Shown one piece after another: positions 4,960 through 40,402 of a stretch of DNA of 64,000 bases. Source of the stretch: an uncultured bacterium (GTDB lineage: Bacteria > Abyssobacteria > SURF-5); assembly GCA_964607485.1 (NCBI GenBank), contig CAZSKP010000014.1, positions 49,441 through 113,440 of the forward strand, in the 5' to 3' direction. Under the pieces are notes generated by a model, which was not told the origin of the DNA, did no database searches, and saw only the letters and a list, made by a program, of their open reading frames with translations. The position numbers and the translations under genes were made by a program. Positions within the stretch are counted from its first letter, which is position 1. Every line of letters begins with the position of its first letter.

Positions 4960-6819
4960 CTAATCCAACTCGAAGTCCTCTTTCCAATCGTGTGTTTCCT
5001 CCCACGTCGGCTGGGACGATTTGTCGAAGAGGTAATTCTCCATCACGAGGTAATCCATTTCCGTCCGCATGAAACAACGGTAGGCTTCCTCGGGAGTGCA
5101 CACGATGGGCTCGCCGCGCACATTAAAACTCGTATTGATCAGTACCGGGCAGCCCGTGTGTTTCTTGAAGGTATGAACAAGTTCCCAATAGCGTTCGTTG
5201 GTCTCACGATTCACGGTCTGTATTCGCGCCGAGTAATCGATGTGTGTGACGGCCGGGATGTCGGAGCGGCGGTAATAGAGGCGCTCGAAAAGCGGCAGGT
5301 CGTGGTAACCATTCGGCAATGGGTTGAGGCGGTCGGCCCTTACCGGCGCGACGAGGAGCATGTACGGCGAAGGTCGGTCAAGCTCGAAATAGTCTGCGCA
5401 ATCTTCTTCAAGCACGGAGGGCGCGAATGGCCGGAAACCCTCACGATACTTGATCTTCAGGTTGAGTCGCTTTTGCATGTCGGGGTCTCGCGGGTCCCCG
5501 AGGATGCTACGATTGCCCAATGCCCTTGGGCCGTATTCCATGCGCCCCTGGAACCATCCGACAACGTTCCCTGCCGCCAAGAGCCGGGCTACTTCCTCAC
5601 AGAGGAGTCGAAAATCCGGGTAATGGCGGTACGGCGCTTCGAACCTTCGGGCAACGCGCACGATGTCGGCTGAGCCATACTCGGGCCCCAGCAAAGAGCC
5701 TTGCATTTCGTCATGTCCGGGTGTGGGACAGCGCTTCTCATCTTTCCATATGTGCCAGGCCGCCAGCGCAGCCCCCAATGCGCCGCCGGCGTCGCCCGCA
5801 GCCGGCTGAACCCACAGATTCTTGAAAAGCCCGCGGCGCAGCAGCTTCCCATTGGCGACACAGTTGAGCGTCACTCCTCCCGCGAGCGCGATATTATCCG
5901 AGCCAGTCAGTTCAAGTGCCGTGGATGCGAGTCGCAGAAAGATTTCCTCCGTCACGTGCTGTATTGCCAACGCGAGGTCCATGTAGGACTGAGTGAGTTG
6001 GCCATTCAAGGGTCGTGGCGGAATGCCAAACAGTGCCTCCCATCGGTCGTCGTGACACATGGTGAGACCGGTGGCATAGTTGAAGTACTCCATGTTCAAC
6101 AGTATTGACCCGTCTTCGCGCAAGTCAACCAATTCGTCCAGAATCTGTTGCCGATACCGTTTGGTCCGGTCACTCTCCGGGTTGCCATAGGGGGCGAGGC
6201 CCATGAGCTTATACTCGCCGCTGTTGACTCTGAAACCGCAGTAGTAAGTAAATGCAGAGTAAAGGAGCCCGAGAGAATGAGGAAAATGCAATTCCTTGAG
6301 AATCCGAATCTCTTTTCCGCTGCCCTTCCCGATAGTCGTCGTGGCCCACTCTCCTACCCCGTCGATTGTCAAGATTGCCGCTTCCTCAAACGGTGAAGGG
6401 AAAAAAGCACTGGCTGCGTGGGAAAGGTGGTGCTCGGGGAATAATAGCGTTGGGTTGCCGTCACCCAGCTTGGCCAACTCCTTCTTCAAGAGCTGGCGCA
6501 TGAGCAGTTTCTCCTTGATCCAAACGGGCATGGCCGAAAGGAAGCTCTGCAGCCCCTTTGGAGAAAAGGCGTGATAGGTTTCAAGCAGTCGTTCGAATTT
6601 GATGTAGGGCTTATCGTAGAACGCGACGGCGGTCAATTCGGCAGGAGTGACATTCCCCTCCGCGAGCACGTAAGCTGCCGCTCGAGTGGGAAATGAGGCA
6701 TCGTACTTCTTCCTGCTGAAGCGCTCCTCCTGGGCTGCGGCTATGATGTTGCCGTCAATGATCAATGCGGCAGCGCTGTCGTGATAGTAGGCCGATATGC
6801 CCAAAATTGCTGATCGCAT
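4960..6819 (-). CDS. O-carbamoyltransferase (NodU/CmcH/SxtI family)
   Basis: ILGISAYYHDSAA, EHHLSHAASAF, DGVGE, EYKLMGLAPYG, GPRALGNRSIL, NTSFNVRGEP; start moved to MRSAILG. Confidence 0.95.
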   Translation of the reverse strand: MRSAILGISAYYHDSAAALIIDGNIIAAAQEERFSRKKYDASFPTRAAAYVLAEGNVTPAELTAVAFYDKPYIKFERLLETYHAFSPKGLQSFLSAMPVWIKEKLLMRQLLKKELAKLGDGNPTLLFPEHHLSHAASAFFPSPFEEAAILTIDGVGEWATTTIGKGSGKEIRILKELHFPHSLGLLYSAFTYYCGFRVNSGEYKLMGLAPYGNPESDRTKRYRQQILDELVDLREDGSILLNMEYFNYATGLTMCHDDRWEALFGIPPRPLNGQLTQSYMDLALAIQHVTEEIFLRLASTALELTGSDNIALAGGVTLNCVANGKLLRRGLFKNLWVQPAAGDAGGALGAALAAWHIWKDEKRCPTPGHDEMQGSLLGPEYGSADIVRVARRFEAPYRHYPDFRLLCEEVARLLAAGNVVGWFQGRMEYGPRALGNRSILGDPRDPDMQKRLNLKIKYREGFRPFAPSVLEEDCADYFELDRPSPYMLLVAPVRADRLNPLPNGYHDLPLFERLYYRRSDIPAVTHIDYSARIQTVNRETNERYWELVHTFKKHTGCPVLINTSFNVRGEPIVCTPEEAYRCFMRTEMDYLVMENYLFDKSSQPTWEETHDWKEDFELD

Positions 6820-6960
6820 CAGCCACTTAGTTCTTCCCGCACGCTTCGAGCCGTGATTGCTTCCGGGCTGTTCCACATTGTTGCCGATCTTGAGGTACAA
6901 AAAGACAGGGGGATTTTCCTGGGGCAAGTACCACTGGTTCTCTATAAGCGGAAGGCGGCA

Positions 6961-7570: not shown

Positions 7571-7600
7571 ATTATATAGAGAGCTTCTGAAGCCTGTCAA
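7571..7600 (-). promoter_or_regulatory. Sigma-70 promoter for the sxtJ-like operon
   Basis: TTGACA-N18-TATAAT on the minus strand. Confidence 0.6.
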
Positions 7601-7859: not shown

Positions 7860-10800
7860 TCAGCTCGATTCATCCTGCGTCCTCGGGCTTGCATTCGAGC
7901 CGGGCGACAGCTCCTCTTTCCACTGCAGATACGTGCTGTAATACTGCAGGATTTCCGATTCACATCCAGAGTCAACGGACGTTCCCTCAGGCTCGATGAT
8001 CTCAATCGCTCCGGCGAATACCTCTCCACTGGAGCCGTTGATGCTGATGGCGTCCGTCTCCCCGAACGCAAGCGAATCGGCCTGCAAAATCCTCGCGTGC
8101 TCGTCGATGATCAGCCCCTGACACCCGGTGATGCACGGCTTGCCCATGCGACGAGAGTTGATTGCCGCGTGGGAGGTCATCCCGCCCTCTCGCGTGAGCA
8201 CGCCCTTCGAGGATGCAATCCCGCCGATGTCCCTTGGAGTCGTGCGGTTCGCTACCAGGATAATGTCCTCGCCTGCCTGGGTTCGGATGATGGCGTCCTC
8301 ACTGTTGAACGCGAGGTGGCCGGTGGCCACTCCCGGCGATGCGGGATTTCCCTTCGCAAGCAAATGTCTCGATGCGCTCGGGTCGAACATGGGGAGAAAA
8401 AGCTGTCTGAGGCCGGTCTCGTCGAGCCTCCCGACGGCTGTCTGCTGGTCAATGATACCTTCGTTGGCAAGCTCGACTGCAATTCTCAAAGCCGCCAAAT
8501 CCGTCCGCTTCGCCGGCCGCGTCTGGAGCAGATAGAGCGCATTCCCCTCGACCGTGAACTCGATGTCTTGCACGTCGCGCAAGTGCGCCTCGAGCTTGCG
8601 TGCCACCGCCTCGAGCTCGCGAAACGTTTCCGGAAAACGATGTTCCAGCGAGAAAGAGGGGTCTGTGCCATCGCGTGCCGAGCTCAGCGGCAGCGGTTCG
8701 CCGTGGCCGCACACCAGCACCTCGCCTTGTGAACGCGGCAGATACTCTCCGAAAATTTGGCGGTCTCCGGTTACGGGATTGCGCGAGAAGACTACTCCCG
8801 AGCACGATTCCGGGCAGAGGTTGCCAAACACCATCTGCTGGATGGTGGCCGCCGTGCAGAACTGGTGGGGGATGTTGAAAATCTGGCGGTAAGTGATGGC
8901 GCTGTCGCTCTGCCATGACAAGAATATCGCTCTGAGCGCCCCCATGAGCTGTTCTCGCGGGTCCTGCGGGAGGGGAGCGCCGATGGCGTCCGCAACTCTC
9001 TTCAACAGGGTCTTCACCATCCGTTTCATCTCTTCCGCGGACGCGCACGCCGGATTACTCTCGGCAAGAGCCGGCTCGCGCGTGTCGGAATAGCCCATGA
9101 CGGAGGAGGCGTACTTTGATATCAGCCTGAAATAGCACTCGTACGCAAACAGAGAGTCACCGGTGATATGGGCCAAACCTTCGACTGTTTCGTCGTTAAG
9201 CCCAATATTCAAGACGGTGTCCAACATCCCCGGCATTGAAACGCACGCGCCCGCCCGCACCGCCAGCAGAAGCGGCTTCTCCGGAGAGCCGAGCCTGCAC
9301 CCGGTGATTTCTTCCAGCTCCTCGATGCTCTCGGACAGGAGCTTCTGGGTGCGGTTACACAAGACATGGCCGTCGGAGAAGAACATGTTGCACACTTTCG
9401 ATGTGAGCGTAAACCCGGGAGGCACATTCAGCCCCAGCCGGGCCATTTCGGCAAGGAATGCGCCTTTCTCCCCCAGTATCGGGTAATGCGCCACCTGCCC
9501 CTCGGCTGCTCCCGGCCGGAAGAAATAGGCGAGTTTGGCCGGGTCAACCTTTTTAGAGATTGCGTCCAGGTCGCGCCTGATTCGGGCCACCTTAATGGCG
9601 GAGATTTCCCTGATGGGCGGATGACGCACGCGCTTCATGAACTCGGCGATGCGCGCGCGAGAGAAATTGAGCAGCCTCAGCGTAAGCTCGGAAAGATGTT
9701 GCAGCGTCGTCTCGCGGAATAGGCCGTCCACGAACGCGCTCGCCGCCTCGTCGGCGTGCGGAATCTGGCGTGACGAAAGAATTTCGCGCGTGGTATCGTA
9801 ATAGGTCTGAACGATCTTGTCCGTCGCCGCTCCTATCTCGGCGTTGATACGCTCGACGATCGAATAGACGGTATAGAAGTTGAGGTCGCTCGATTCCTTG
9901 AGCGCGAGGAGCTGCCTGCCGTAGTCTCTGATTTTCTTCGTGCACTGTCCCTTGGCGCGCACGCTCAAAATCATCGAATGCATCACATCGATGGCCAGCG
10001 GAAGCGCCTCGACCGTGATGTCGGCCAGAATCACATTGCTCGCCTCGCCGTAGATAATGTAGCCGAGACGTTCGAGTGTCAGGTCGAGCCAGATGGCCTC
10101 CAGCGTTACCTCGATTGTCCGCGTTTGAACCAGCGGATTCTTGATTGTGTCGCGCAGCGATATCCGCACCTCGCCGAGCATCAAGGCGGCGTTGAGGATG
10201 TCCCGCGCTCGCAGATACCCGATGAATCGCTCGAGCGATTCGAACAGATGGGGGAAGAAGAGAGAAACCGCCTCGCGCCGCCATGAATCGATGAGGGCAT
10301 GTATCTCCTCCGGCTCCTTTTTGTCTGCGCTTGTCAGCCCGGCCCTCAAGTTCTCGAAAAGTCGTTTGACATTGGGATTCTCTGCGTCGAGAATCGATTC
10401 TTCGAGCAGATTGACGAGAATCTCCACATTGGTTTCAATCAACGATCTGTTCCGCTTCTCGATACTGCCGAGGAGATACCGAAGCTGGCTGTTGACCCGG
10501 GGCGATACAATCTGCGAAATGTTGCTGAGGAGTTGGTATATGTCTTCTACCCGGTCTTCGATGTTCCCCGGATGGGGCTCAAAAACATTTGCGAGTTCCC
10601 TCTCCAGCTCTTTCAACAAGCCGAGTATCGGCTGGAATTTGTCGGGGCGGTACTGAAACACTTTCTGATACTTGTTTATTGCGGTCAGAGGCTCGGAGTC
10701 GGCGTTCTCCACATAGGCGAGGAGCGCTCGCACGAGGTCGAGGTTGCGCGGAGAGAGCTTGCTGTGGATTTCTCCCCTGATATCCTCGGTGATGGGGGAT

Positions 10801-11204
10801 GGGAACGCGTATTCTATCTCTTCGGCGAGCCCGCGCAACGCCCGAATCTCGTCTTGCGACGCGCCGAAGAAGGGCAGGCTCTTGACCAGTTGCCGCACGA
10901 GCAGATACATGTCGTCCGAGGACAGGTCTATGCACATCAGTTCTTCGAGCTTCTCGCGCATCTGCTTCGAGAGCGCAATGCTATCGGCCTTCTCGGCGAA
11001 GCCGCTGCCCCGGTAGCCGGCCAGGCTGCCCGTCTCAACGCGCAGATTCACGTTGAGCGCCTTGATGAGGTCGGTGCTGCCGAGCGGGTCGGAGACAATT
11101 CGCTCGATGCAGGCGAACACCTTCTCCCAGCTATTGATGGGCTCAAACTCTGATTCTTTGACCTCAACACTCATTCTGCCGTCAGATGCTCCCTCAGCGT
11201 TCAT
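7860..11204 (-). CDS. Atypical dikinase: glucan-water-dikinase-like N-terminal region + PPDK ATP-grasp + phospho-His swivel domain, no PEP/pyruvate barrel
   Basis: LGEKGAFLAEM..LGLNVPPGF, VRAGACVSMPGMLDTVLNIG, QQMVFGN, QDIEFTVE..LYLLQTR, GGMTSHAA. The protein stops just after the PPDK linker helix. Alternative start at 11174. Confidence 0.85.
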   Translation of the reverse strand: MNAEGASDGRMSVEVKESEFEPINSWEKVFACIERIVSDPLGSTDLIKALNVNLRVETGSLAGYRGSGFAEKADSIALSKQMREKLEELMCIDLSSDDMYLLVRQLVKSLPFFGASQDEIRALRGLAEEIEYAFPSPITEDIRGEIHSKLSPRNLDLVRALLAYVENADSEPLTAINKYQKVFQYRPDKFQPILGLLKELERELANVFEPHPGNIEDRVEDIYQLLSNISQIVSPRVNSQLRYLLGSIEKRNRSLIETNVEILVNLLEESILDAENPNVKRLFENLRAGLTSADKKEPEEIHALIDSWRREAVSLFFPHLFESLERFIGYLRARDILNAALMLGEVRISLRDTIKNPLVQTRTIEVTLEAIWLDLTLERLGYIIYGEASNVILADITVEALPLAIDVMHSMILSVRAKGQCTKKIRDYGRQLLALKESSDLNFYTVYSIVERINAEIGAATDKIVQTYYDTTREILSSRQIPHADEAASAFVDGLFRETTLQHLSELTLRLLNFSRARIAEFMKRVRHPPIREISAIKVARIRRDLDAISKKVDPAKLAYFFRPGAAEGQVAHYPILGEKGAFLAEMARLGLNVPPGFTLTSKVCNMFFSDGHVLCNRTQKLLSESIEELEEITGCRLGSPEKPLLLAVRAGACVSMPGMLDTVLNIGLNDETVEGLAHITGDSLFAYECYFRLISKYASSVMGYSDTREPALAESNPACASAEEMKRMVKTLLKRVADAIGAPLPQDPREQLMGALRAIFLSWQSDSAITYRQIFNIPHQFCTAATIQQMVFGNLCPESCSGVVFSRNPVTGDRQIFGEYLPRSQGEVLVCGHGEPLPLSSARDGTDPSFSLEHRFPETFRELEAVARKLEAHLRDVQDIEFTVEGNALYLLQTRPAKRTDLAALRIAVELANEGIIDQQTAVGRLDETGLRQLFLPMFDPSASRHLLAKGNPASPGVATGHLAFNSEDAIIRTQAGEDIILVANRTTPRDIGGIASSKGVLTREGGMTSHAAINSRRMGKPCITGCQGLIIDEHARILQADSLAFGETDAISINGSSGEVFAGAIEIIEPEGTSVDSGCESEILQYYSTYLQWKEELSPGSNASPRTQDESS

Positions 11205-14200
11205 CCAGCCCGTCGAGCGCCGACAGCGTCCGCGTCGCCAGATACTTCAAGGCCGCGCCGCCGCCCGTACACAAGGTAAACTTCTCCTTCGCCGCCTCGA
11301 TTCCGCCCATGCGACGATTCACGGCGGCAACTCCGTCGCCGCCGACCACGAGCTTTGCCTTGGCCGGGCACTGCGCGATGGCGTCCACAATCCAGTTTGT
11401 TCCCTCAGCGAATTGCTCCACTTCGTAGAGCCCGACGGTTCCGTTGTAGATGATCGTGCCTGCTTCAGCGAGAATGGCTTGAATCTCGCCCGCCGTCCTT
11501 GTGGCGGCGCCGTCGCTCGCGGCCGCAATATCAAACAGGTATGAACCGAAAGGAATGCTTTCCGCATCAAGAACGCGCGAAGACACTCGCAGGAGCGGCC
11601 TGAACTTGTCGGGCAGCTCGAAGGCAACGTGCACGTCCTTGGGAATCACGACCTTGACGTCGAATTCAGCCGCCAGCTCTATCAGCCTGTGGGCGGCCGC
11701 CACCTCGCGCTCGACCTCGAGCACGTCGGCACCCGAGAGCGAGTTGCCGGCCGACAGGCCGCTCGCAACGAGAAAGGCCGGGGATGCCGTCACAAATGTC
11801 TGAATGGCGCCATGGCGTATCATTGCTTCGACCGCGGGAATCTTTTCGCTTATCTTTACGCCGCTGACGAAAGCGACGACGGGCCGGCTGGCCTCGCGCA
11901 GTATTCCATCGAGAGTTTCAAGCTCGCTCCCCGTCAGCAAACCCAACACTTTATGCCCGTGGACGAGGTTCATCAGCGGCAGAAACGAGGCGTGAAGCCC
12001 GCGATGGGAGGCGCCGAACGCGCTGTTGACATAGTTAACCCGTCGCTGCGAGTCCGGGTCGAGATGGCCGAAGAGCGTGTCAAAAATGGCCTTCGCGAAA
12101 TGCCGATTGCCCGACTCCTCTCCTTCGTGGAAACGCAGATTCTCGAGATAGAGAACCTGACCGGGCCCGAGGCCGCGCGCGAGTGACGCTGTCTGGGCAT
12201 CGACGACGCCGGGCGCCATGAAGAAATCCCTCTCGGGAACAAGGACATTCCGGTCCCGCAGTATTTCGGCGAACCGCTGGCCTGCAATCCTCAAACTGAA
12301 CAGGTCAATGACTTGACCGTCCTCCGTCTGGAGGAACTGGAAATCTCTCTTGCGCCCATTGTGCGACATCACAATGACTCTCGCGTTTCGCTTGATGAGG
12401 TGCGCAATGTCGTCCGCGCTTGCAAATATCCGATGGTCATCGATGATTGAAGGTCTTATGGTGTTGGTGGCCGGGTCATAAAGCGGCTCCACGACGTTAT
12501 GGTCAACCCGTACCATCCAGTACATGCCGTCGAACGCTTCGTCAGGCAGGTCGAGAAGCGAGGATTTCTTTGAATAGGGACTCTCGGATTTCGGGGGCAC
12601 GTCGGGCACATAGGGAAATTGTGTGAAATCCTTCTGGTACGCCTTTTCCGCAGGCAGCATCACTTCTTCGAGGAATTCGACGTACATTTTCGACGGTCGC
12701 CACTCGTTTTCGTACCAGCCGATCAACTGGATGACGGTCATTGGCTCGCCGCTGGGAGCCACGAAATGGACGACCTCGACGTTCCTCTTACACAGCGTTA
12801 CGCCCGCCTCCGCAAGCTCTCGCAGCAGTCTGATTTGCGTTGAGCGGTCGATTTCCTTGTCCCTGAGGAACTGAAATCTCTGATGGTCGCCCTCGCGGCA
12901 TGCATCCTCCAGCACTTTGGCGGCAGCCTCGATATCATCAATCGTGTAATGTCCTCGGAGCACATAGGTGGGAGCCATGATGGAAACAGTTTCTATCGGG
13001 AACCGTATCGAGTACACCGGCGTGTGTGAAGTTCCCGCGGCGTCCACGAGAGCGGTGCTGGCGCTTGCGCCCGACGTCGTCTCGAAGATGTTTCCTGTCG
13101 CGTCGGTGCCGCGCCGTATGTCTTTCTTGTACTCTATCGGGTCGATTATGTCGGGGCCGACGTGCTCGCCGGTGAGCGCGTGATAGGTCGGCCCGATTCC
13201 CTCGAGCACCATTGCGCCGGCAACCTCGTAGAATCCGTTCCAGTCAAACCGGCCCTCCTCGGCGCCGCGGTGCATTGCCACCTCGACGAGACGGTTCAGA
13301 TTGGCCAGACATCCAGTCGTGCACGAGGCCGGGGAAAGAAAGTAATGCTTCGCGGGATCATACTTGTGGTCATTGATGTGCCTTATGAAGGTGGCATCGC
13401 GCCACTCGTCTTCCTTGCTCGAGCCGGGCGCGGTGATCATTGCCCGCAGGGCGCCGGCGCGCCTGTGGCGGTTGACGCCGTCCAAGTTGTTGAAGCGGCC
13501 AGTCGCATCTATGGCGACGTGTACAGGCATCCCGGCCAGTATGAAGCATTTCCACGGATAGTTCGCCGGGTCTCTGAATACCGGGTGGCTGAACACGAGC
13601 GATCGCTTCCCGTCCAGCTCAATCCAATCACGACCGTATTGAACGGTGCCCGGATAGCGACCCTGAACATAATCCTTCTCGTTCATCAGCTCGGCGAGGC
13701 GCTTGGCATCGGGGCCGCCCACCGCGATGACGCGCAGCGTGTCGCTCTTCGAGGCTATGCGGAACGTGCAGCTTCCCATGCGGCCGCCCGGAGCGTTGAT
13801 GGTGATGTTGTACACTCCCGGCAGTGAGGGATACAGTATCGAGTTCGGCCTGCTGATGGTCTGCCATCGCTGTCGCTGTCCATCATACTGGTCGATCGAC
13901 AGAAAGGTCACCCGGTCGAAGAGCTCCGTCTTCTCGTTGTAATCCAGGTGATGAACCCGGATGGTCGCCCGGAGCTTGTCGCCGTATTCGTATACATCAT
14001 GTATCAGTATTTCCCAGTCGTATTCGCGGCTGAGCCGGAGCGCGTATTTGCGAAGCGCATCGTAGTATCGCCCCATCACATGATGCACATTCTCAAGCGA
14101 CGCGGCGGTGAGCAGCGAAGTCGCGTACAGCTTGTGCCGGTTCTCGTGGAGCGCGACCATCGCGACAGCCTCTCCCGTCTCGTCACGCAAAACCTCCTGC

Positions 14201-16482
14201 AGGATGATAGGCTGCGACTCGAGGAAGAGCAGCCTCACAGCGTCCTCGGTCAATTCGCGGTCGGATACGCGGATCGTGCCCGTGCCCCCCATGGAGCCTG
14301 CGTACATGCGGGCTCGACGTTTCGTGGCGTGCGCCTGCGTTTTCTGTTCATACTTCCGGGCAAGACGCGGGATGTGACGCTTTGAAAAGTCGGTCTGTTG
14401 AGCGATGTCAAGCTTTGCCCAGTGACGGCTTGCCGCGGGCATACCCGGCGTGAATGTGTCAGCCCTCTCTCCGAGCTCTCGCTTAAGAGAATGGCCGGCG
14501 ATGAGGCGCAGCGCTTCCTCGACATCCGCCACAGCCTCGTCGAGGAAAAAGGCGATGCTCACCTGGGTGCCGGCATCGTTCTGGCTGACATAGACCTGGT
14601 TAGGGTCGAACATAATTCTGGAACTTCCGAAATTGAGATTCGAGGTCAACTGCACCCACCATTCGGGCAGGCTGAGCACTTCAAGTTCCTGCGCTTTCGC
14701 CTTGAAGAGCGAGATTATCCTCTCTCGCGAGAGCCTCGAATCGACCACCGCGTTCAAGCGGAGAAGCTTGCCGCGCGGAATATTCGTCTTGAATTCGTTA
14801 GTGGCGAGCAGCTTTGTATCATCACCGGCCAGCCCCAGCATCCTCGCCACACCGGCGAAGCGCTTCGGATTCTTCTTATGGATGACCTGGTACACTCCGG
14901 CTACTCTGTATGTTGGCTGGACAACTGCCGGTTCGTCATGCTTCTCGACAATATCGGCTCCCAGCACAAAGATCTTCCCCATCTCGGAAAGGGCGGATAT
15001 CCCGAGCGCATACGCAACTTCTTCGGCAGGCATGATGCCGAACGCGCTTCTTCCTTCAGGGTATTTCTCATTTAAGAGGGAGTGGACGGTCGCATCGTCA
15101 CTTGTCTGTGTCCGAGCGACAACAAGTTGTGCCCCTTCTTTACGAATACGCTCCAGTAACTGCGGCTCAATCTTACGAGCGTGATCTTCGCTGATGAGGA
15201 TATAGTCGATGCCCAAAGCCTTCCAGGGAAGGGACTCAAGAACGGCCGGCGCTTCGGTCAGGCTCCCGTGATACACACTGATGGCAGATTTCTGTTTGCC
15301 GATAGAAAGGAAGCCTTTCTCATCACCCTCGACCTCTTCATAGATTCCAAGCTGCGAGTTGTACTTCAGCCACTGCATAATGTCTTTGGCTTTCTGCCCG
15401 ACAAAGACCACTGCCTCCAGCTCATTGACATACGCGCTGCCGATCCTGCGCAGAGCGGCGATAATGTTCTGGTTGTATCCGACAACCGCAATCCGGCGCG
15501 GTGCGTTTCCGGGTGAGAGATGCGCCAAGATACGGGAACGAATGGCCGCAAGATGTCCGGCCTCGAGCTCGAGGAAGGGCGATTCCGAAAGTCTGAACAC
15601 ATCGTAGAATTCATTCATCCCCGGAACAAACTTCGCTAACTCATCCAGCGAGCGCTTCCTCTTTTCGGGATCCCTCTGAAAACGATCCAACTGAGCGAGA
15701 AGCCTGTCGATTTCGCGAACTTCCGTTACCGGCGCTATCCTCATCCCTCGTTGCTCAATCAGTGCACGAACCGCGTCAAGCGAGGGATGGCCCACCTCCT
15801 CCATAACGTATGCTTCCTCGGAAAGTTCGGGGGTTTGCTTCTCGACTCTTCTCGCCATCGCGGCGAGTGCACCCGACCGAGCCTGCATGTTAAACATGAA
15901 CGAAGCTGCTTCCGACAGAATTCCTTCAGGCACGTGTCGATGAACACTGGGACGATTGAAGTCGTCACAGAACTCGGCGAAAAGATGGTAAACGCCGTCT
16001 TCGCCGTCAAATATGTTCGTCCCGTATGCCGCCTTGAACTCCTCTGCAAGAGCTTCCTCCCCGATTCCTTCCCTCGCCATGAACTCCCGGAGCCCGGAGT
16101 GGAGAAGGGGAAAGAGTTGGAGGCGTCGCGCCATCCACTCGACACCTTCGTGAACGAGCGTCCGGTTCAATACGCGGCGGCGACGATGCTGAAAGCTTTC
16201 GTTCGAGTTTTGAGCGGTTATCTCTGAGCGACAGATCCATTCGAGGAAGGAGTACGTGTCGAGGACATCGGAATAGATGATTCCCTGATTGTCGGCGAGT
16301 GTCGCTATAGGGAATTGTTCGAGGGCTGGTGCGAGATCTATGTCTTGAAGCGCCGGGTCGGCGCGCGCAGCTGTCTCCACAAGTCGATGAATGTAAGTTG
16401 AAGAGGGCCGGTGCAAAATTATCGGTATCTGAGAGAAGCCTTCGGGACGGGCGAGAAGCTCGGGTGGGCTTGGCAAAAGCAT
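11194..16482 (-). CDS. Giant fusion: unknown domain + degenerate GAPDH + linker + divergent GAPDH + phosphoglycerate kinase
   Basis: GAPDH motifs IDATGRF, ASCTTGCLA, YHALT, TTSGA, WYENEW. PGK motifs RVDHNV, SHNGR, LENLRF, AFGASHR, TGGGAAL. Start set at ATG 16482 with GAGGAG RBS. Confidence 0.88.
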   Translation of the reverse strand: MLLPSPPELLARPEGFSQIPIILHRPSSTYIHRLVETAARADPALQDIDLAPALEQFPIATLADNQGIIYSDVLDTYSFLEWICRSEITAQNSNESFQHRRRRVLNRTLVHEGVEWMARRLQLFPLLHSGLREFMAREGIGEEALAEEFKAAYGTNIFDGEDGVYHLFAEFCDDFNRPSVHRHVPEGILSEAASFMFNMQARSGALAAMARRVEKQTPELSEEAYVMEEVGHPSLDAVRALIEQRGMRIAPVTEVREIDRLLAQLDRFQRDPEKRKRSLDELAKFVPGMNEFYDVFRLSESPFLELEAGHLAAIRSRILAHLSPGNAPRRIAVVGYNQNIIAALRRIGSAYVNELEAVVFVGQKAKDIMQWLKYNSQLGIYEEVEGDEKGFLSIGKQKSAISVYHGSLTEAPAVLESLPWKALGIDYILISEDHARKIEPQLLERIRKEGAQLVVARTQTSDDATVHSLLNEKYPEGRSAFGIMPAEEVAYALGISALSEMGKIFVLGADIVEKHDEPAVVQPTYRVAGVYQVIHKKNPKRFAGVARMLGLAGDDTKLLATNEFKTNIPRGKLLRLNAVVDSRLSRERIISLFKAKAQELEVLSLPEWWVQLTSNLNFGSSRIMFDPNQVYVSQNDAGTQVSIAFFLDEAVADVEEALRLIAGHSLKRELGERADTFTPGMPAASRHWAKLDIAQQTDFSKRHIPRLARKYEQKTQAHATKRRARMYAGSMGGTGTIRVSDRELTEDAVRLLFLESQPIILQEVLRDETGEAVAMVALHENRHKLYATSLLTAASLENVHHVMGRYYDALRKYALRLSREYDWEILIHDVYEYGDKLRATIRVHHLDYNEKTELFDRVTFLSIDQYDGQRQRWQTISRPNSILYPSLPGVYNITINAPGGRMGSCTFRIASKSDTLRVIAVGGPDAKRLAELMNEKDYVQGRYPGTVQYGRDWIELDGKRSLVFSHPVFRDPANYPWKCFILAGMPVHVAIDATGRFNNLDGVNRHRRAGALRAMITAPGSSKEDEWRDATFIRHINDHKYDPAKHYFLSPASCTTGCLANLNRLVEVAMHRGAEEGRFDWNGFYEVAGAMVLEGIGPTYHALTGEHVGPDIIDPIEYKKDIRRGTDATGNIFETTSGASASTALVDAAGTSHTPVYSIRFPIETVSIMAPTYVLRGHYTIDDIEAAAKVLEDACREGDHQRFQFLRDKEIDRSTQIRLLRELAEAGVTLCKRNVEVVHFVAPSGEPMTVIQLIGWYENEWRPSKMYVEFLEEVMLPAEKAYQKDFTQFPYVPDVPPKSESPYSKKSSLLDLPDEAFDGMYWMVRVDHNVVEPLYDPATNTIRPSIIDDHRIFASADDIAHLIKRNARVIVMSHNGRKRDFQFLQTEDGQVIDLFSLRIAGQRFAEILRDRNVLVPERDFFMAPGVVDAQTASLARGLGPGQVLYLENLRFHEGEESGNRHFAKAIFDTLFGHLDPDSQRRVNYVNSAFGASHRGLHASFLPLMNLVHGHKVLGLLTGSELETLDGILREASRPVVAFVSGVKISEKIPAVEAMIRHGAIQTFVTASPAFLVASGLSAGNSLSGADVLEVEREVAAAHRLIELAAEFDVKVVIPKDVHVAFELPDKFRPLLRVSSRVLDAESIPFGSYLFDIAAASDGAATRTAGEIQAILAEAGTIIYNGTVGLYEVEQFAEGTNWIVDAIAQCPAKAKLVVGGDGVAAVNRRMGGIEAAKEKFTLCTGGGAALKYLATRTLSALDGLDER

Positions 16483-16589
16483 AATCGCGCTCCTCAGATG
16501 TAACACGCCTATACTTTTGGCAGCACAATACTTATGCAATCCGCGTCACAACCTGAAAGGTGGGAGCGAACAGAATTCAGCCTACGGTA

Positions 16590-16618
16590 ATTTTACCCTC
16601 ATTTCCGAGAATAGTCAA
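16590..16618 (-). promoter_or_regulatory. Sigma-70 promoter for the GAPDH-PGK/dikinase operon
   Basis: TTGACT-N17-TAAAAT on the minus strand, about 110 nt before the start. Confidence 0.6.
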
Positions 16619-34149: not shown

Positions 34150-34944
34150 CTACGCGCGGATCTTCTCACTTGCCACGCACGCCGCCCCCAGTGCGCCAAT
34201 TATCTGAGGGTCGATGCCGTCGGGGAAGCTCTTCAGGTCGAATTTCAGTTTCTTTTGCAGAGCGTCTAATACCCCTCGATTCTTTGCGACGCCGCCCGTG
34301 ACCGCGATGGCTTCCTTCAACCCGACCCTGCCAACCATAGTGCTCACACGATTTGCGAGCGAGATGTGCAGGCCTTTCACGATGCTCGGGAGCGGAACTT
34401 CTTCGTTTATGAGGTTTATCACTTCCGACTCGGCGAAGACGCTGCACATGCTGCTGATGGTCGTCGGGTCTCCCTCCTGGAAATGGAGCTCGGACAGCTC
34501 TTCCAGCTCGATGCCCATGCTGCGCGCCATCATTTCGAGGAAACGTCCCGTGCCCGCGGCGCACTTGTCGTTCATGGCGAAATCGAGCAGGTTGCCCTCG
34601 TCGTCGAGCCGTATCGCCTTGGTGTCCTGGCCTCCGATATCGATAATCGTGCGGACATCGTTCAGGAGCATGTAGGCGCCTTTCCCGTGGCAGGAGATTT
34701 CCGAGACGTTGACATGCGCGAAATCCACTTTTGCACGGCCGTATCCTGTGCCCACGATGTAGGCGACGTCCGCTTCGCCGCATCCGGCCCTTTTGAGCGC
34801 TTCGTGGAAAACCTCCCTGGCGGTCTTCGTGGGATTGGTGGTGCTCGGGCCGGTCACATAGCTCAGGATGTGGCCGTCGTTCAAGATCAGGGCCTTGCTC
34901 GCAGTGGAGCCGATGTCGACGCCCGCCGTTATTGTTGTTGACAT
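34150..34944 (-). CDS. 2-hydroxyacyl-CoA dehydratase activator (HgdC/BcrA-D type ASKHA ATPase)
   Basis: GVDIGST, TGYGR, EISCH, DIGGQD, MNDKCAAGTGRF, CSVFAESE, TGGVAKN. Confidence 0.95.
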   Translation of the reverse strand: MSTTITAGVDIGSTASKALILNDGHILSYVTGPSTTNPTKTAREVFHEALKRAGCGEADVAYIVGTGYGRAKVDFAHVNVSEISCHGKGAYMLLNDVRTIIDIGGQDTKAIRLDDEGNLLDFAMNDKCAAGTGRFLEMMARSMGIELEELSELHFQEGDPTTISSMCSVFAESEVINLINEEVPLPSIVKGLHISLANRVSTMVGRVGLKEAIAVTGGVAKNRGVLDALQKKLKFDLKSFPDGIDPQIIGALGAACVASEKIRA

Positions 34945-34970
34945 TTTCCCCTCTCCTCAAACAGCCGCAC

Positions 34971-36293
34971 TCACGCTCTCTCCTTTTTCATCTCCACTCT
35001 GGGGAGCACGATGTCGTTCACAAAGCGCGAGAATTCTTCCTGAATCGCCTCGACAGGAGTTACCCTCGGGTCGAACATGTCGTATTCGAACACGAGCAGC
35101 GGCACTCCTTCCTCGCGAGACGCTTCCTTGAACAGGCCGAGTCCGCCCCACGCATGTTTGCACGCGACATGGCCGGCGAAAATGCCGCAGTCGCCCTTGA
35201 ACTCGCGACACAACTGGAGGTAATCATCGACATACGCCTCGATGGGCCCTTTGAACTGACGCGACATGGGCATGAGCCTGATCAGCTTCCTGGCCAAACC
35301 CTCCAGCATTGCGTCGGGACTGGAGGTGTCGATGTACCCTTCCGGCGCGTAGTAGCCGAACAGGTCCATCGGAATGCACATCTTCAGTTCGAACTCGAGC
35401 CAGTCGTAAAACGACAGGTCGAACCAGATGGGGTCTTGATACCAGATTCCGCGGATGGCCTCGCCGCCTTCGACCGCCGATTCGCCCCTCTCGATTCTCT
35501 CCCTGCATTCAATCGCAAGCTCCTCGGCTACGTGGCATCCGGCCTCGGAACCCGACGCCACAATGACCAGCCCCGTCATGAGCGACGAAACCTTGCTGGC
35601 CTGCGGGCATGGGACATGTTTCCTGCCTTCGTTCCACTCCCACAGGTGCGTTGACATCCGGTTCGAGAGCTCGCACACCTCAGCCAGCTTGTCCCAGGAG
35701 AACTTGAGGCCCGTGTGTTCCTCGAGATAGGGAATCGCGTTGCGAAGCTGCTTGGCGACATACCTGATTTCCCGCTCGCCGTAAAGGTAGGGGATGTCAA
35801 TCAGGCGAAGCGGCTTGCCGGTCACATGCATGAGGGTCTGTGACGCCGCTATCTGCGAGTCGCACGGCGTGTTGGCGAAGAACAAGCATGTTGGGTCGGG
35901 CATCACTTTTTTCAGGGCGGCGCCGAGCGCACCCTTGTCGATTGAGCATACCTCGGGCGCCAGGCCGTGGGCCTCCGCCTTATCAATATTCTCGATGTTG
36001 AAATTCAAATCGCCCACGAGCGTGTTGAATCCGGTGACCATCTCGATGGGATAGCTTTGGACGGGCCCGTCGAGCGCACGAATGATTTCGGGGCTGATGC
36101 CGCAGTTGTGCCAGACCATCGGCACGTTGTCGTCCATCGCCTGGAAAACGTCTTCGATAAACTGCTTAAACGTCGAGAAATGCGCCCTCAGCCCTCTGGA
36201 TGCCGGGTCGGCTTCGTAGAGTGCGATCAGGCCTTCGACCCCTTCGTATATGGATTCCCATTCGTCCCAGCGATCTTTTCCCAGAATTGCCAT
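34971..36293 (-). CDS. 2-hydroxyacyl-CoA dehydratase subunit (HgdA/BcrB-like)
   Basis: EVCS, PCD, ACKH FeS cysteines; EYDMFDPR C-terminus. Confidence 0.87.
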   Translation of the reverse strand: MAILGKDRWDEWESIYEGVEGLIALYEADPASRGLRAHFSTFKQFIEDVFQAMDDNVPMVWHNCGISPEIIRALDGPVQSYPIEMVTGFNTLVGDLNFNIENIDKAEAHGLAPEVCSIDKGALGAALKKVMPDPTCLFFANTPCDSQIAASQTLMHVTGKPLRLIDIPYLYGEREIRYVAKQLRNAIPYLEEHTGLKFSWDKLAEVCELSNRMSTHLWEWNEGRKHVPCPQASKVSSLMTGLVIVASGSEAGCHVAEELAIECRERIERGESAVEGGEAIRGIWYQDPIWFDLSFYDWLEFELKMCIPMDLFGYYAPEGYIDTSSPDAMLEGLARKLIRLMPMSRQFKGPIEAYVDDYLQLCREFKGDCGIFAGHVACKHAWGGLGLFKEASREEGVPLLVFEYDMFDPRVTPVEAIQEEFSRFVNDIVLPRVEMKKERA

Positions 36294-36311
36294 GACCCGA
36301 TACCTCCCTTT

Positions 36312-37442
36312 CTACTTCCCGATCTTTTCCAGGAACGCCTGGACGCGCGTTTTCACCTGTCCTGCCGCCGTGACCCCATACTCCCTGTCCAGCACCAGGA
36401 TGGGGATATTCTCTTCCTTCAATGTCCATTGCAGATTGTGACCGTCGCTGGCCCACGGGTCGCAGAATTTCATGCGCTGAAAGACGACTCCGTCTGCGCT
36501 GAAATCCTTCACGAGGCCCTTGAGGATTTCCGCTCTCTTGGGAAATTCGCCGACCGTTCTCGCGCACGGCACATGGTAGAAATAGCGGTGAAGGAGATTT
36601 TCCATGATGTCGCCGTCCTCGTTCACCAGTTCTGAGAAATAGCGCGCGCCGAAGCAGACATCTTCCGCGACGACGAGGCCTCCCTGCTCCTCGATGTTGC
36701 GCAAATATGCGGGCTCGTCGAATTCTCCGCCGGTGAGTATCAAGCGCGCCCGGTAGGAGCTCCTTGTCTCTCCGTCGCCAAGTTCCGCGAGGAGCCGTTC
36801 CAGCATCGGGTTGAAATCTTCCTTCGGCATCACGTGTGCGGCGACGGAAACCGTAAGGGCGTCGGCTCCCGTGATGGGCGGATTGGCCTTCTTCCTGATG
36901 TCAGCGAGCCGCAGCAAGAGCCTGCGCGTTTCGTTGTGGAGCTTGACGGCTGCCTTCAAGCTGTCGTCTTCGATCTTGACGGAGAAGTGCTCCTCGATGC
37001 TCGCTGCCAGGTTTGCAATCTCTTCCTTATACCAATCGAAAACGTGTTCCTCAAACGTCCGCGGAATGGACATGAACGCCTTGAACGGGATGTCCACCTT
37101 GTTTTTCCACACGTCGAACGCCCTTCGCACGTGGTCGCATGTGTTCGCCAGAATCACGCCGCCGAGGAACTTCATCTCTCCTTCGAGAGCCAGATTGACG
37201 CTGTGCCTCACGAACGTGCACAGGCGGGCGCTGAGGTACGTGTCGGCGATGGAGGTATCCTTGCTGCCCGCTCCCCGAACGCGATAGGGAAGCATTCCGG
37301 CCGCCGTGATCAGTTCCTCGGGAATGTATGAGCAATAATACCCAACGACCTTTTTGCCGCTGTTGAGCCAGCGGTCGAGGTACTCATTTCGGGGCGAGGA
37401 GATCGCCTCTCGAAATGTGTTCATGATTTCCTGTTCGTTCAT
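36312..37442 (-). CDS. 2-hydroxyacyl-CoA dehydratase subunit (HgdB/BcrC-like)
   Basis: YCSYIPEELITAAG, LCTF, TCD, KFCDP, TRVQAFLE. Confidence 0.9.
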   Translation of the reverse strand: MNEQEIMNTFREAISSPRNEYLDRWLNSGKKVVGYYCSYIPEELITAAGMLPYRVRGAGSKDTSIADTYLSARLCTFVRHSVNLALEGEMKFLGGVILANTCDHVRRAFDVWKNKVDIPFKAFMSIPRTFEEHVFDWYKEEIANLAASIEEHFSVKIEDDSLKAAVKLHNETRRLLLRLADIRKKANPPITGADALTVSVAAHVMPKEDFNPMLERLLAELGDGETRSSYRARLILTGGEFDEPAYLRNIEEQGGLVVAEDVCFGARYFSELVNEDGDIMENLLHRYFYHVPCARTVGEFPKRAEILKGLVKDFSADGVVFQRMKFCDPWASDGHNLQWTLKEENIPILVLDREYGVTAAGQVKTRVQAFLEKIGK

Positions 37443-38215
37443 GCTGACACCTCTTCCTTCTTTGACCACAATCGTCGCACGATGTTCTGCACGTCGGCAA
37501 GAAAAGGAGCACTTGCCGGTATTTCGAAGATCGTTCTCCCTTCCCTATCGTTTTTTCTCAGCGTTGCGTCCTCCCGGATCATCCCCCAGGAGCCCAAGTT
37601 CATCCTGCTCAGCGTTTCGTTCGGGCAAGAATCCTCTTCGTCCATCCGATTGATGATAGTCCCCACTTGGCAGTTCATTCCCAAATCGCCCGCAACCTCG
37701 ACGAGTTTCTCCGCGGTCTGGACGCTGCGGAGGGAACAGTCCATCAGAAGAACGAGGTAGTCAACGTGTCTCATGACATCGCGGTACACCTGCTCCAGCC
37801 CGGCCTCGGCGTCGATGAGAACGATGTCGTAATTGCCCGCCAGAGTCTCCACGGCATCTCTCAGCAGCCGATTCACAGGGCAGAAACAGCCTTTGAACCG
37901 CGAATGTCCCATCCCCAGGAAGTCAAACGAGGGGGTCTCGATGAGCGATTCCATCAGCAGGTAATTGAATGATGCAGCGATTTCCTCTTTCCGCTTGTTG
38001 GATTTGGCGTCCTGGATAAGCCGATCCCTGACAGTTCCGATGGTTGCCGTCTCGCGGGCGATTCCCAGGAGTTGCTGGAGCCCACCGGCGGGGTCGGCGT
38101 CGATTGCGAGAGCTTTCCTCTTTTCTTCGGAGAACACGCGCACGCAAGCCGCCGTGAAAGCGCTCTTTCCCACGCCTCCTTTGCCGCAGGCGGCAATCAC
38201 CGTCGCACCCGCCAC
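37439..38215 (-). CDS. CooC/AcsF-like MinD-family ATPase
   Basis: GKGGVGKS, IDADP, GCFC.VN, IDAEAGLEQ. Confidence 0.87.
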   Translation of the reverse strand: MAGATVIAACGKGGVGKSAFTAACVRVFSEEKRKALAIDADPAGGLQQLLGIARETATIGTVRDRLIQDAKSNKRKEEIAASFNYLLMESLIETPSFDFLGMGHSRFKGCFCPVNRLLRDAVETLAGNYDIVLIDAEAGLEQVYRDVMRHVDYLVLLMDCSLRSVQTAEKLVEVAGDLGMNCQVGTIINRMDEEDSCPNETLSRMNLGSWGMIREDATLRKNDREGRTIFEIPASAPFLADVQNIVRRLWSKKEEVSA

Positions 38216-38989
38216 TTACTTCCCTCCCTCACTGAATGTTTCCGCATGCAGGTTGCGTCTCTTCACTTCCTGCGCCACATCCCTCAGCGCGTCGCACTCC
38301 GGCTTATCGGGACACGAGTCGCAGTCGTAAGGGTTTTCGCATTCATAGTCTTTGCCGGTCCTCTTCCTGGCTTTTTCGAGCTGCTCGTCGCGTCGCCTCT
38401 CGTTCACACGCCTGGCTATCCGCATAATTTCCTTCACCCGGTCATGCATGCCCACGACGAAGATCGCTTCAGCGGCTTCGACGACCGGCGCCGAGTCATG
38501 TATCGTTTGAAGAAGATACTCGCCCCAGACCTGCAGCGAGAAGCCGTCCTGCACAGCTTTAGTGCTCACCCTGGCCCATATCTTTTCGTCCATCAACCGT
38601 ACCATGCAGCCGTCCAACTGGCCGGCGGCGGGCAGCGCCATTCTGAGTTTGGACAGATGTTCCGGCTTGATGCCGGCGCCGCCGACAAGCGCGACGTGCG
38701 CGAAGGGATAGCGCCCGCGCTCAAGGTGTCCGAGGTCGGTGCCGACTATGAGGATTCGGCCGTCATCGATAAGAGATGTATCGTTCGTGCTGAGAACGAG
38801 CGCCGCCGAGGGAACCGAAGGGTGTCCTAACTCCAGATGCGTTTCCGACTGAGAAACAATCCGCGACGTGCCTTGAGGTCGCATGAAACGTTCGGGCGCA
38901 GACGACGACCCACTGCTGAAGCTCGATCCACGGGCATGCTCGGGGATTCTTTCGAGCACGCTTCTTATTTCTCCAATGCAGCCGTCCAT
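38216..38989 (-). CDS. Protein resembling an isolated middle domain of acetyl-CoA synthase beta subunit, with a C-terminal four-Cys motif
   Basis: ELGHP, DGRI.IVG.DL, PFA, IWARVS..AV..GFSL..WG; tail CENPYDCDSCPDKPEC. Confidence 0.65.
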   Translation of the reverse strand: MDGCIGEIRSVLERIPEHARGSSFSSGSSSAPERFMRPQGTSRIVSQSETHLELGHPSVPSAALVLSTNDTSLIDDGRILIVGTDLGHLERGRYPFAHVALVGGAGIKPEHLSKLRMALPAAGQLDGCMVRLMDEKIWARVSTKAVQDGFSLQVWGEYLLQTIHDSAPVVEAAEAIFVVGMHDRVKEIMRIARRVNERRRDEQLEKARKRTGKDYECENPYDCDSCPDKPECDALRDVAQEVKRRNLHAETFSEGGK

Positions 38990-39036
38990 TGTGTCCTCAC
39001 AAAATCCGGAGCGTCGATGGTGTCAGATGCCGGAGT

Positions 39037-40356: not shown

Positions 40357-40402
40357 TGTGCACCCTCCTGCGTGCCCCGCACGGACATGACCAATGTTTC
40401 TC

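Follow-up and report, generated by a model that had tools for sequence, protein, structure and literature searches.

We analysed a window of 64,000 nucleotides from an uncultured bacterium of the Abyssobacteria (SURF-5; contig CAZSKP010000014.1, positions 49,441 to 113,440), whose genome is 97.5% complete. A gene on the minus strand of this window, here termed A, encodes glyceraldehyde-3-phosphate dehydrogenase (GAPDH) and phosphoglycerate kinase (PGK) domains in a single protein of 1,762 amino acids. It is followed directly by gene B, which encodes a relative of pyruvate, phosphate dikinase (PPDK) in which the PEP/pyruvate barrel was not found. Domain content and conserved residues suggest, with a probability of roughly 0.5, that A is an accessory tethered GAPDH/PGK unit that acts together with dikinase B at the node of 3-phosphoglycerate (3-PG) and 1,3-bisphosphoglycerate (1,3-BPG).

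Gene A and its five domains

Protein A consists of five parts: a helical N-terminal domain, a degenerate GAPDH fold, an alpha/beta domain, a catalytic-looking GAPDH domain and a PGK domain. Residues are numbered from the ATG at 16482; structure predictions were made with AlphaFold2 (AF2) and are given with the predicted local distance difference test (pLDDT).

11194..16482, minus strand: gene A, 1,762 amino acids, start ATG at 16482, stop TGA at 11194-11196
15517..16410, minus strand: residues 25-322, mostly helical N-terminal domain (AF2, pLDDT mostly 60-90)
14479..15507, minus strand: residues 326-668, degenerate GAPDH-fold domain, Rossmann plus alpha/beta (Foldseek, VIA)
13828..14277, minus strand: residues 736-885, alpha/beta domain (AF2, pLDDT about 75-88)
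12613..13806, minus strand: residues 893-1290, GAPDH domain (Pfam, NCBIfam, PDB profile)
12535..12612, minus strand: residues 1291-1316, proline-rich GAPDH-PGK linker (sequence)
11197..12534, minus strand: residues 1317-1762, PGK domain (Pfam PGK, 199 bits)

According to the list of open reading frames (ORFs) and the Pfam matches, the GAPDH and PGK domains share one minus-strand frame, which contains neither a frameshift nor a stop codon in the window. The frame is open up to an in-frame TTG at 16539 and the ATG at 16482 is the likely start; a database protein identical to A (P0001, 1,762 amino acids) begins at this ATG. The initial annotation of this DNA, made from the sequence alone, had placed an in-frame GAPDH-PGK fusion at 11194..13815. 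The fusion is borne out, with both domains matched in one frame by Pfam and by the PDB profile, and the domain borders proposed then were right within about 15 nucleotides. The extent, however, covers only the rear half of the gene, which begins at 16482 and encodes 890 conserved residues upstream of the two enzyme domains.

Homologues of A were obtained by a word-based protein search (NCBI, JGI, ENA and Logan assemblies). Altogether, 12 relatives were found, eight of them full length with 65-89% identity and one, 2,199 amino acids long, with 47% identity; the nearest named genome record with a homologue is a metagenome-assembled genome (MAG) of Candidatus Abyssobacteria (88%). All full-length homologues, which come from separate assemblies and several sources, keep the fusion. 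The ratio of nonsynonymous to synonymous substitution rates (dN/dS) was computed per segment between A and an 88% identical homologue (dS 0.37-0.81). The N-terminal domain has a ratio of 0.15 and the degenerate GAPDH fold one of 0.12; the alpha/beta domain has the lowest value (0.056), the GAPDH and PGK domains have 0.084 and 0.091, and the GAPDH-PGK linker is the least constrained segment of A (0.22). Every segment of A is thus under purifying selection (0.056-0.22). Because the homologues in separate assemblies keep the fusion and all domains have ratios of 0.06-0.22, the fusion is natural and conserved, with no stop codon lost. A sequencing error, which the initial annotation had named as a possible refutation, is contradicted by the conserved homologues and by the selection acting even on the linker. 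The same architecture in independent assemblies and the intact frame in the window likewise make an assembly chimera, or two genes joined by a lost stop, extremely improbable.

Gene A is split in two assemblies. In locus L020 (128-1797) the frame changes near 1045-1156, and in the other case the gene is represented by P0011 (1,035 amino acids, with an out-of-frame tail) and P0088 (699 amino acids), whose contigs are recorded with equal length. These splits may be sequencing errors or real frameshifts.

Pfam searches with residues 1-890 of A gave chance-level matches only, at E values up to 5. The AF2 model of this half (12-row alignment, mean pLDDT 68.5) contains a helical region (28-322), a Rossmann plus alpha/beta domain (329-660), a long helix (693-730) and the alpha/beta domain (736-883). 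The residues up to approximately 245 are specific to Abyssubacteria-type members, and distant relatives align from about 230-270 on. In searches with the N-terminal half, the degenerate GAPDH-fold domain filled the match lists of both Foldseek and VIA. The top Foldseek matches of this domain in the PDB are all GAPDH or erythrose-4-phosphate dehydrogenase (best E value 1.7e-14; template modelling (TM) score, normalised to the target, 0.63), with 16% identity in an alignment of about 350 columns. VIA, which does not depend on Foldseek, returned the GAPDH 7bex_A with a Z score of 14.7 (288 aligned residues, root-mean-square deviation 5.1), 8jb1_B (14.5) and 2czc_A (12.8); the GAPDHs are followed by aspartate-semialdehyde dehydrogenases (ASADH) and N-acetyl-glutamyl-phosphate reductases (ArgC) with Z scores of 11-12. 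Read from the sequence, the domain has no GxGxxG motif and no cysteine at the place of the catalytic cysteine, and BLASTP against the catalytic GAPDH domain of A gave nothing significant (E value 0.23). Kinship to GAPDH thus appears at the level of the modelled fold only. The same region gives weak Gp_dh_N matches in three distant relatives (P0047, P0082 and P0083), which is consistent with an old tandem duplication. The neighbouring alpha/beta domain is the most conserved segment of A; it is common to the whole superfamily and lies inside the stretch that is matched in distant relatives.

The two C-terminal domains are recognised by sequence. Pfam identifies Gp_dh_N at residues 912-1018 of the ORF (2.3e-11, 44.3 bits, above the cut-off of 31.7) and PGK over profile positions 6-377 of 379 (1.2e-58, 199.4 bits, cut-off 27). 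A search of PDB sequences with a profile of 10 family members matched GAPDH at positions 889-1187 (E value 6.4e-34) and PGK at 1297-1759 (4e-45), and nothing besides GAPDH and PGK occurs among the 60 matches listed. As judged by eye, the N-terminus of A has no hydrophobic segment and its C-terminus is the end of the PGK domain.

The catalytic cysteine, Cys1054 (13321-13323), and histidine, His1101 (13180-13182), of the GAPDH domain lie in the motifs SPASCTTGC and TYHALT, whose aligned counterparts in the canonical GAPDH of the genome are SNASCTTNC and TVHAYT. Neither motif varies among the 10 sequences of either family alignment. The superfamily GAPDH alignment comprises 10 sequences with 28-47% identity to the reference row, and S-ASCTTGC, T.H..T.E, R, T..G, R.P and WY.N are invariant in it. 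A keeps the arginine pair of KDIRRG, has T-S-G for T-T-G, and retains the arginine of IRFP as well as WYENE; A and three relatives all have the residues of the two phosphate sites in the alignment to the genome's own GAPDH. We take the kept residues to be T179, R195, T208/G209, R231 and N313/E314 in the numbering of the Geobacillus enzyme. In the PGK domain, the motifs RVDHNV, DDHRI, HNGRK, ENLRF, FGAxHR, SGxKxxEK, NGTxGLxE, GGDG and TGGGA are invariant in all 10 sequences. Compared with the PGK of the host, the 3-PG patch is intact in A (RVDHNV, DDHRI, HNGRK, ENLRF and FGASHR), and both lysines of SGVKISEKI are kept, likewise the Asn, Glu and Asp of the nucleotide motifs. The motifs listed in the initial annotation (INAPGGRMG, SPASCTTGC, TYHALT, SGVKISEKI, TASPAF and YNGTVGLYE) all occur in the translation, as does the proline-rich linker, and the catalytic residues of GAPDH and the basic 3-PG patch of PGK that it had reported are kept in the alignments.

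The same genome encodes a canonical PGK (535 bits, compared with 204 for A) directly beside a canonical GAPDH (142 bits, compared with 40 for A) on another contig, and a complete PPDK elsewhere (1,430 bits). Since the genome has this canonical gap-pgk pair and a full ppdK, A is an accessory paralogue and not the housekeeping enzyme. In a survey of 11 genomes of the phylum set, canonical PGK was found in all 11 and A in only three. In a PGK tree, rooted at the midpoint only, the PGK of A forms a clade with P0012 (support 100/99) that is sister to P0051/P0052 (100/100), within a group of polyprotein PGKs that has only weak support (84/86); the phylum's canonical PGKs stand apart (99/99), and P0045 and P0047 are on long branches. 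Two genomes of the same phylum contain a canonical PGK match within a frame of 746-747 amino acids (G001:C6:103273-104415 and G003:C37:8983-10080), which is about the size of a PGK fused to triose-phosphate isomerase (TIM) of the Thermotoga type. A pattern scan also found GAPDHs of ordinary length with the motif S-x-A-S-C-T-T-G-C (L030-L039; Bacteroidota, Acidobacteriota and others); they are 25-33% identical to the polyprotein GAPDH domain and might be its free-standing kin.

Gene B and the association of dikinases with PGK

Gene B, which the initial annotation had not noticed, lies immediately downstream of A.

7860..11174, minus strand: gene B, 1,104 amino acids from the ATG at 11174, or 1,114 amino acids from the ATG at 11204

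B starts 19 nucleotides past the stop codon of A if the ATG at 11174 is used, and overlaps A by 11 nucleotides if translation begins at 11204; the sequence GAGGGAG spans the stop codon of A in front of the ATG at 11174. The protein is composed of an all-helical extension of 560 amino acids, a PPDK nucleotide-binding (ATP-grasp) domain and a phosphohistidine swivel domain, with Pfam matches to PPDK_N (5.5e-36) and PEP-utilizers (4.8e-18). Its phosphohistidine motif GGMTSH, which is kept in the family consensus, contains His1012 (8169-8171; numbering of the 1,114-residue form). Residues 557-1076 match positions 2-514 of the 865 positions of the PPDK model TIGR01828 with 537.7 bits; B is thus of the PPDK type (538 bits) as opposed to the PEP synthase type (90 bits). 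The short-form model NF004531 (PRK05878-type) gave 427 bits, with a cut-off of 456. The PEP/pyruvate barrel (PF02896) has no match in B or in three homologues, positions 515-865 of the PPDK profile are unmatched, and B ends about 50 residues beyond the swivel domain.

AF2 predicts 25 helices for the extension of B (pLDDT 80.6, predicted TM score 0.75). Pfam gave chance-level matches only for residues 1-560 at E values up to 5. The best match in the ESM Atlas (0.85) is below the level that the tool regards as meaningful, the best Foldseek match has an E value of 0.011 and a TM score of 0.12, and VIA returned generic four-helix bundles with Z scores of up to 10.7, below its threshold for helical proteins. 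BLASTP of the extension against the N-terminal half of A gave no match.

In all four loci with downstream DNA (the window, L005, L016 and L018), the next gene on the downstream side of A is a homologue of B, and the remaining neighbours differ among these loci. A further link to PGK was found in P0085, a profile-search match of 1,413 amino acids. It contains a helical N-terminal region, PPDK_N (516-732), a swivel domain (867-949) and PGK (1012-1400, 400 bits), and in BLASTP its residues 17-220 and 269-958 proved homologous to B (E values 1e-10 and 1e-61, 25-26% identity). This deep-branching relative of B therefore has PGK at the very place of the phosphate-acceptor barrel in PPDK. Altogether, barrel-less PPDK derivatives are repeatedly associated with PGK, as a neighbouring gene (A-B) or by direct fusion (P0085). 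L044 (Anaerolineae), found together with P0085, contains a 917-amino-acid ORF that is a PPDK candidate by length alone.

The surroundings of the two genes were inspected as well. A promoter-like site and two genes lie upstream of A in the window.

16590..16618, minus strand: promoter-like site TTGACT-17-TAAAAT (consensus scan only, 10/12 matches)

The two genes are a TetR gene and a class III aminotransferase gene. Genes for dCache histidine kinases and response regulators are located upstream of A in genome G010 (L017, 6265-8076) and upstream of a solitary B in G004 (L046, 3945-11389); one of the genes upstream of A (G010) or of solitary B (G004) encodes a response regulator fused to a Na/sulfate-type symporter. 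Just downstream of B, at 7571-7600 on the minus strand, lies a perfect sigma-70 consensus (TTGACA-18-TATAAT, 12/12), which precedes a carbamoyltransferase gene (4960-6927); this is a consensus match only. Farther away in the window, a run of minus-strand genes at 34150-40440 encodes a BcrAD/BadFG-type ATPase, two HGD-D (2-hydroxyacyl-CoA dehydratase-like) proteins, a ParA/MinD-like ATPase, a short CdhC-like ORF and a GMC oxidoreductase. Anaerobic acyl-CoA chemistry typically involves such a run, which has no relation to A and B.

Proposed function and alternative explanations

We propose that A would catalyse the steps glyceraldehyde 3-phosphate (GAP) + NAD(P)+ + inorganic phosphate (Pi) <-> 1,3-BPG <-> 3-PG, with both domains probably active and the unstable acyl phosphate passing between a GAPDH and a PGK that are held together by a short flexible linker. 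To judge from its fold, the degenerate GAPDH domain most likely supplies in cis the surface of a GAPDH subunit partner. A and B would work as a two-gene unit. Because its ATP-grasp domain and the phosphate-carrying histidine are kept, B presumably still runs the reaction ATP + Pi + His <-> AMP + pyrophosphate (PPi) + His~P; it may exchange phosphate at the PGK step and so couple the 3-PG/1,3-BPG node to AMP/PPi besides ADP/ATP. We infer catalysis, cofactor use, direction of flux and the phosphate transfer between B and A from the sequences. The initial annotation had considered the fusion a natural channelling construct. Homologues and dN/dS values support a natural fusion, but it is not a simple two-domain construct, since the protein has five domains and belongs to a wider polyprotein family.

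Several findings weigh against the proposed function. The C-terminal GAPDH domain model Gp_dh_C reaches 4.9e-4 and 20.2 bits, under its cut-off of 24.4, and the full-length model TIGR01534 gives 115.4 bits with a cut-off of 367.2. The canonical NAD fingerprint GxGxxG is replaced in A by NAPGGRMG, with a one-residue insertion, and AVGGPD, with Gly-Gly-Pro at the Asp position, stands against AVNDITD of the host enzyme; G-P at this position is invariant across the superfamily alignment. Exchange of Asp32 for Gly is the classical change in GAPDH that admits NADP, and we regard it as a lead, not as a result. The nucleotide-site motifs of the PGK domain are likewise non-canonical: TASPAF replaces GGGMAYTF, YNGTVG (NGT) replaces WNGP.G (NGP) and VGGDG replaces GGGDT. 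Thus, in A the residues for substrate binding and phosphoryl transfer are conserved, and the pockets for the adenosine part of the nucleotides are remodelled. This pattern fits a changed cofactor or nucleotide specificity, which the initial annotation had raised as a possibility; as both nucleotide sites are off consensus, a loss of activity is also conceivable. For B, the TIGR01828 score of 538 is below the cut-off of 843. The PGK of P0085 has canonical nucleotide motifs, which fit an ordinary ADP/ATP kinase near a dikinase. The extension of B is present in six of the 11 surveyed genomes compared with three for A, and the N-terminal half of A has no match in G004, G007 and G008 (92-97% complete), in which B is flanked by other genes. 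A is always accompanied by B and B is not always accompanied by A; B therefore has a role that is independent of A, and the adjacency of the two genes could partly reflect descent among related genera. A search of sequencing runs found no RNA run with the stretch; it found four DNA runs, from one sediment study, and one of the four may be the source.

These points have to be weighed with the alternatives. In plain channelled glycolysis, A would simply carry out both the GAPDH and the PGK reaction with the usual NAD(P) and ADP/ATP, and B would be unrelated or merely co-regulated, with an acceptor of its own that is perhaps bound via the helical extension. The intact catalytic residues of both enzyme domains, the occurrence of B without A in three of the six B-bearing genomes and the canonical ATP-site motifs of the P0085 PGK would all agree with this. 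We nevertheless regard it as rather unlikely, since B lies directly downstream of A in four of four loci with otherwise unconserved neighbours and a B homologue that branches deeply has PGK in the same polypeptide chain; an extra copy of 5.3 kb kept under purifying selection beside a normal gap-pgk pair would also be left unexplained. Use of the enzyme folds as metabolite sensors or as a scaffold, with catalysis irrelevant, seems very unlikely. One GAPDH-fold domain of A is already degenerate, A and B both have large helical domains without a known family, and two-component genes lie upstream of relatives, which would suit such a function. Against it stand the GAPDH cysteine, histidine and phosphate-site residues, invariant in sequences with as little as 28% (up to 47%) identity to the reference row, the PGK active-site motifs invariant in 10 of 10, and the dN/dS values, which are lowest in the alpha/beta domain and the catalytic GAPDH domain next to it.

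The remaining alternatives give B a more direct part. In a '3-phosphoglycerate, phosphate dikinase', a new kind of dikinase system made up of A and B that we consider unlikely, 3-PG/1,3-BPG bound to the PGK module would exchange phosphate with the swivelling phosphohistidine of B, and the tethered, NADP-permissive GAPDH would make or consume the acyl phosphate. The conserved 3-PG patch and the remodelled adenine pocket of A would permit such an exchange, as would the order of domains in P0085; the canonical ATP motifs of P0085 and the presence of B without A weaken the case for it. An equally low probability is assigned to a dikinase-driven activation of 3-PG, in which the His~P of B replaces ATP as phosphoryl donor or acceptor and the PGK-like domain is mainly a binding module for 3-PG/1,3-BPG, with the net reaction 3-PG + ATP + Pi + NAD(P)H <-> GAP + AMP + PPi + NAD(P)+ + Pi running in either direction. 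PPDK itself proceeds by three partial reactions (PMC8100219). The PGK of P0085 occupies the place of the PPDK acceptor barrel, B is of the Pi/PPi-dependent PPDK type and not of the PEP synthase type, and A combines an invariant 3-PG patch and invariant catalytic lysines with altered adenine-pocket motifs (TAS for GGG, T for P, G for T), all of which argue for this activation. By our own reasoning, however, the closed cleft of PGK would leave a protein histidine little room, and the kept nucleotide motifs in P0085 and the existence of B without A again speak against it. The tethered GAPDH/PGK unit acting with B is the reading that we prefer.

The wider family and known fusions

A HMMER scan with residues 1-890 of A, which covered 1.84 billion representatives, identified 22 proteins. 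Ten of them are distant (1,661-2,680 amino acids) and share 22-31% identity with A over residues of about 230-885, with E values of 1e-31 to 8e-57 and, for two, of about 1e-8. Pfam shows that relatives of A carry further glycolytic enzymes, among them phosphofructokinase (PFK):

P0041, P0045, P0047: TIM, GAPDH and PGK
P0042: TIM, GAPDH, PGK and enolase
P0040, P0044: class II aldolase, TIM and GAPDH
P0043: PFK and GAPDH
P0046: TIM and GAPDH (NCBI record, Candidatus Omnitrophota MAG)
P0051, P0052: PGK and TIM

A profile search extended the set to 33 proteins in all and added domains of glucose-6-phosphate isomerase (GPI), fructose-1,6-bisphosphate (FBP) aldolase/phosphatase and cofactor-independent phosphoglycerate mutase (iPGM). 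All distant relatives with source names are labelled Omnitrophota. The conserved core of these megaproteins, made up of the degenerate GAPDH fold, the alpha/beta domain and the catalytic GAPDH, is present in A. P0012, P0042 and P0047 begin with a hydrophobic, signal-peptide-like segment (by eye), which is absent from A and B; A appears to be a reduced member of the megaprotein family without an export-type leader. In P0042 and P0047 the hydrophobic segment is followed by an NLR(P/Q) motif, and P0041 and others have about 200 extra residues past PGK.

One Omnitrophota locus (L028, JAKLGJ010000002.1, 2-16264; also L043, 1-19998) contains two adjacent giant genes. The first (about 3,300 amino acids) encodes aldolase, GPI, PFK and a complete dikinase, and the next (2,160 amino acids) TIM, GAPDH and PGK. 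They are preceded by a 556-amino-acid ORF without a Pfam match and by a mosaic ORF of at least 5,483 amino acids with NDK, GDPD, cation-efflux, M50 peptidase, HEAT, WD40, methyltransferase, PHP and DHH domains, and are followed by genes for a sugar ABC transporter, an MFS transporter and a GH2-like protein. This Omnitrophota genome also has a canonical PGK. The dikinase of the first giant gene was considered as close kin of B and rejected: BLASTP matched the dikinase part only, with 23% identity.

PPDK (EC 2.7.9.1; TIGR01828) and its short PRK05878-type form share the nucleotide and swivel domains and GGMTSH with B, whereas B has no PEP/pyruvate domain and carries in addition the 560-amino-acid helical N-terminal extension, for which no convincing fold match was found. 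A mechanistic analogue of A, and an analogue only, is delta-1-pyrroline-5-carboxylate synthase, a fusion of glutamate 5-kinase and gamma-glutamyl phosphate reductase: like PGK and GAPDH, a kinase that makes an unstable acyl phosphate is joined to the Cys-dependent dehydrogenase acting on this product. Its folds and its substrate have no relation to those of A, and its domains come in the opposite order.

Fusions of glycolytic enzymes have been described before. Passages of a PGK review cover PGK-TIM fusions, multidomain PGKs of protists and, for GAPDH with PGK, a non-covalent couple only (PMC7729029). In the PGK-TIM protein of Thermotoga maritima (fus gene), as in A, PGK is covalently joined to a glycolytic enzyme (PMC7729029), and the best NCBIfam match for the PGK part of A is indeed the PGK/TIM model NF010569 (178 bits). 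In contrast to A, the partner in Thermotoga is TIM, which catalyses a non-adjacent pathway step, there are two domains instead of five, and neither a degenerate GAPDH-fold domain nor a dikinase partner is present. The stramenopile TPI-GAPDH also joins GAPDH to a neighbouring glycolytic enzyme, but it is eukaryotic, mitochondrion-targeted and two-domain, with GAPDH at the C-terminus and no PGK (PMC3527533). Giant proteins of Omnitrophota, the 'Archaeovorins', contain TIM, GPI, FBPase, PGM/PMM, aldolase and, frequently, PPDK domains (10.1101/2023.11.21.568195). The named distant relatives of A are from Omnitrophota as well and have such domains, one of them beside the mosaic ORF described above. 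The words 'phosphoglycerate' and 'glyceraldehyde' are absent from the searched passages of that preprint (10.1101/2023.11.21.568195). A differs from the Archaeovorins by its size of 1,762 amino acids, its different phylum, the lack of a TIM domain and, as judged by eye, the lack of a hydrophobic leader and a C-terminal tail. A second preprint on Omnitrophota counts glycolytic KEGG orthologues (KOs), and fusions go unmentioned in the passages shown (10.64898/2026.06.07.730766).

In a literature search that left subscription journals and supplements aside, we found no description of a covalent bacterial GAPDH-PGK or PGK-dikinase fusion. The initial annotation had allowed that the architecture might be common and already characterised; it proved to be rare, with no describing paper found. 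A is a new variant among fused glycolytic enzymes, and the dikinase link is possibly a new mechanism.

Direct handover of intermediates among glycolytic enzymes has been debated for decades, mostly on the basis of weak, transient complexes. Here GAPDH and PGK are welded into one chain, relatives combine as many as five or more enzymes of the pathway in this way, and the fusion persists under purifying selection beside normal free enzymes, which makes A a natural, expressible test object for the channelling of 1,3-BPG. The labels 'phosphoglycerate kinase', 'triose-phosphate isomerase' and 'pyruvate, phosphate dikinase' that these genes currently carry would mislead metabolic reconstructions. 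The recurrent tie to a barrel-less dikinase suggests an undescribed energetic variant at the 3-PG/1,3-BPG step in anaerobic uncultured bacteria. If a '3-phosphoglycerate, phosphate dikinase' exists, glycolytic substrate-level phosphorylation would in these organisms be tied to AMP + PPi <-> ATP + Pi and not to ADP <-> ATP.

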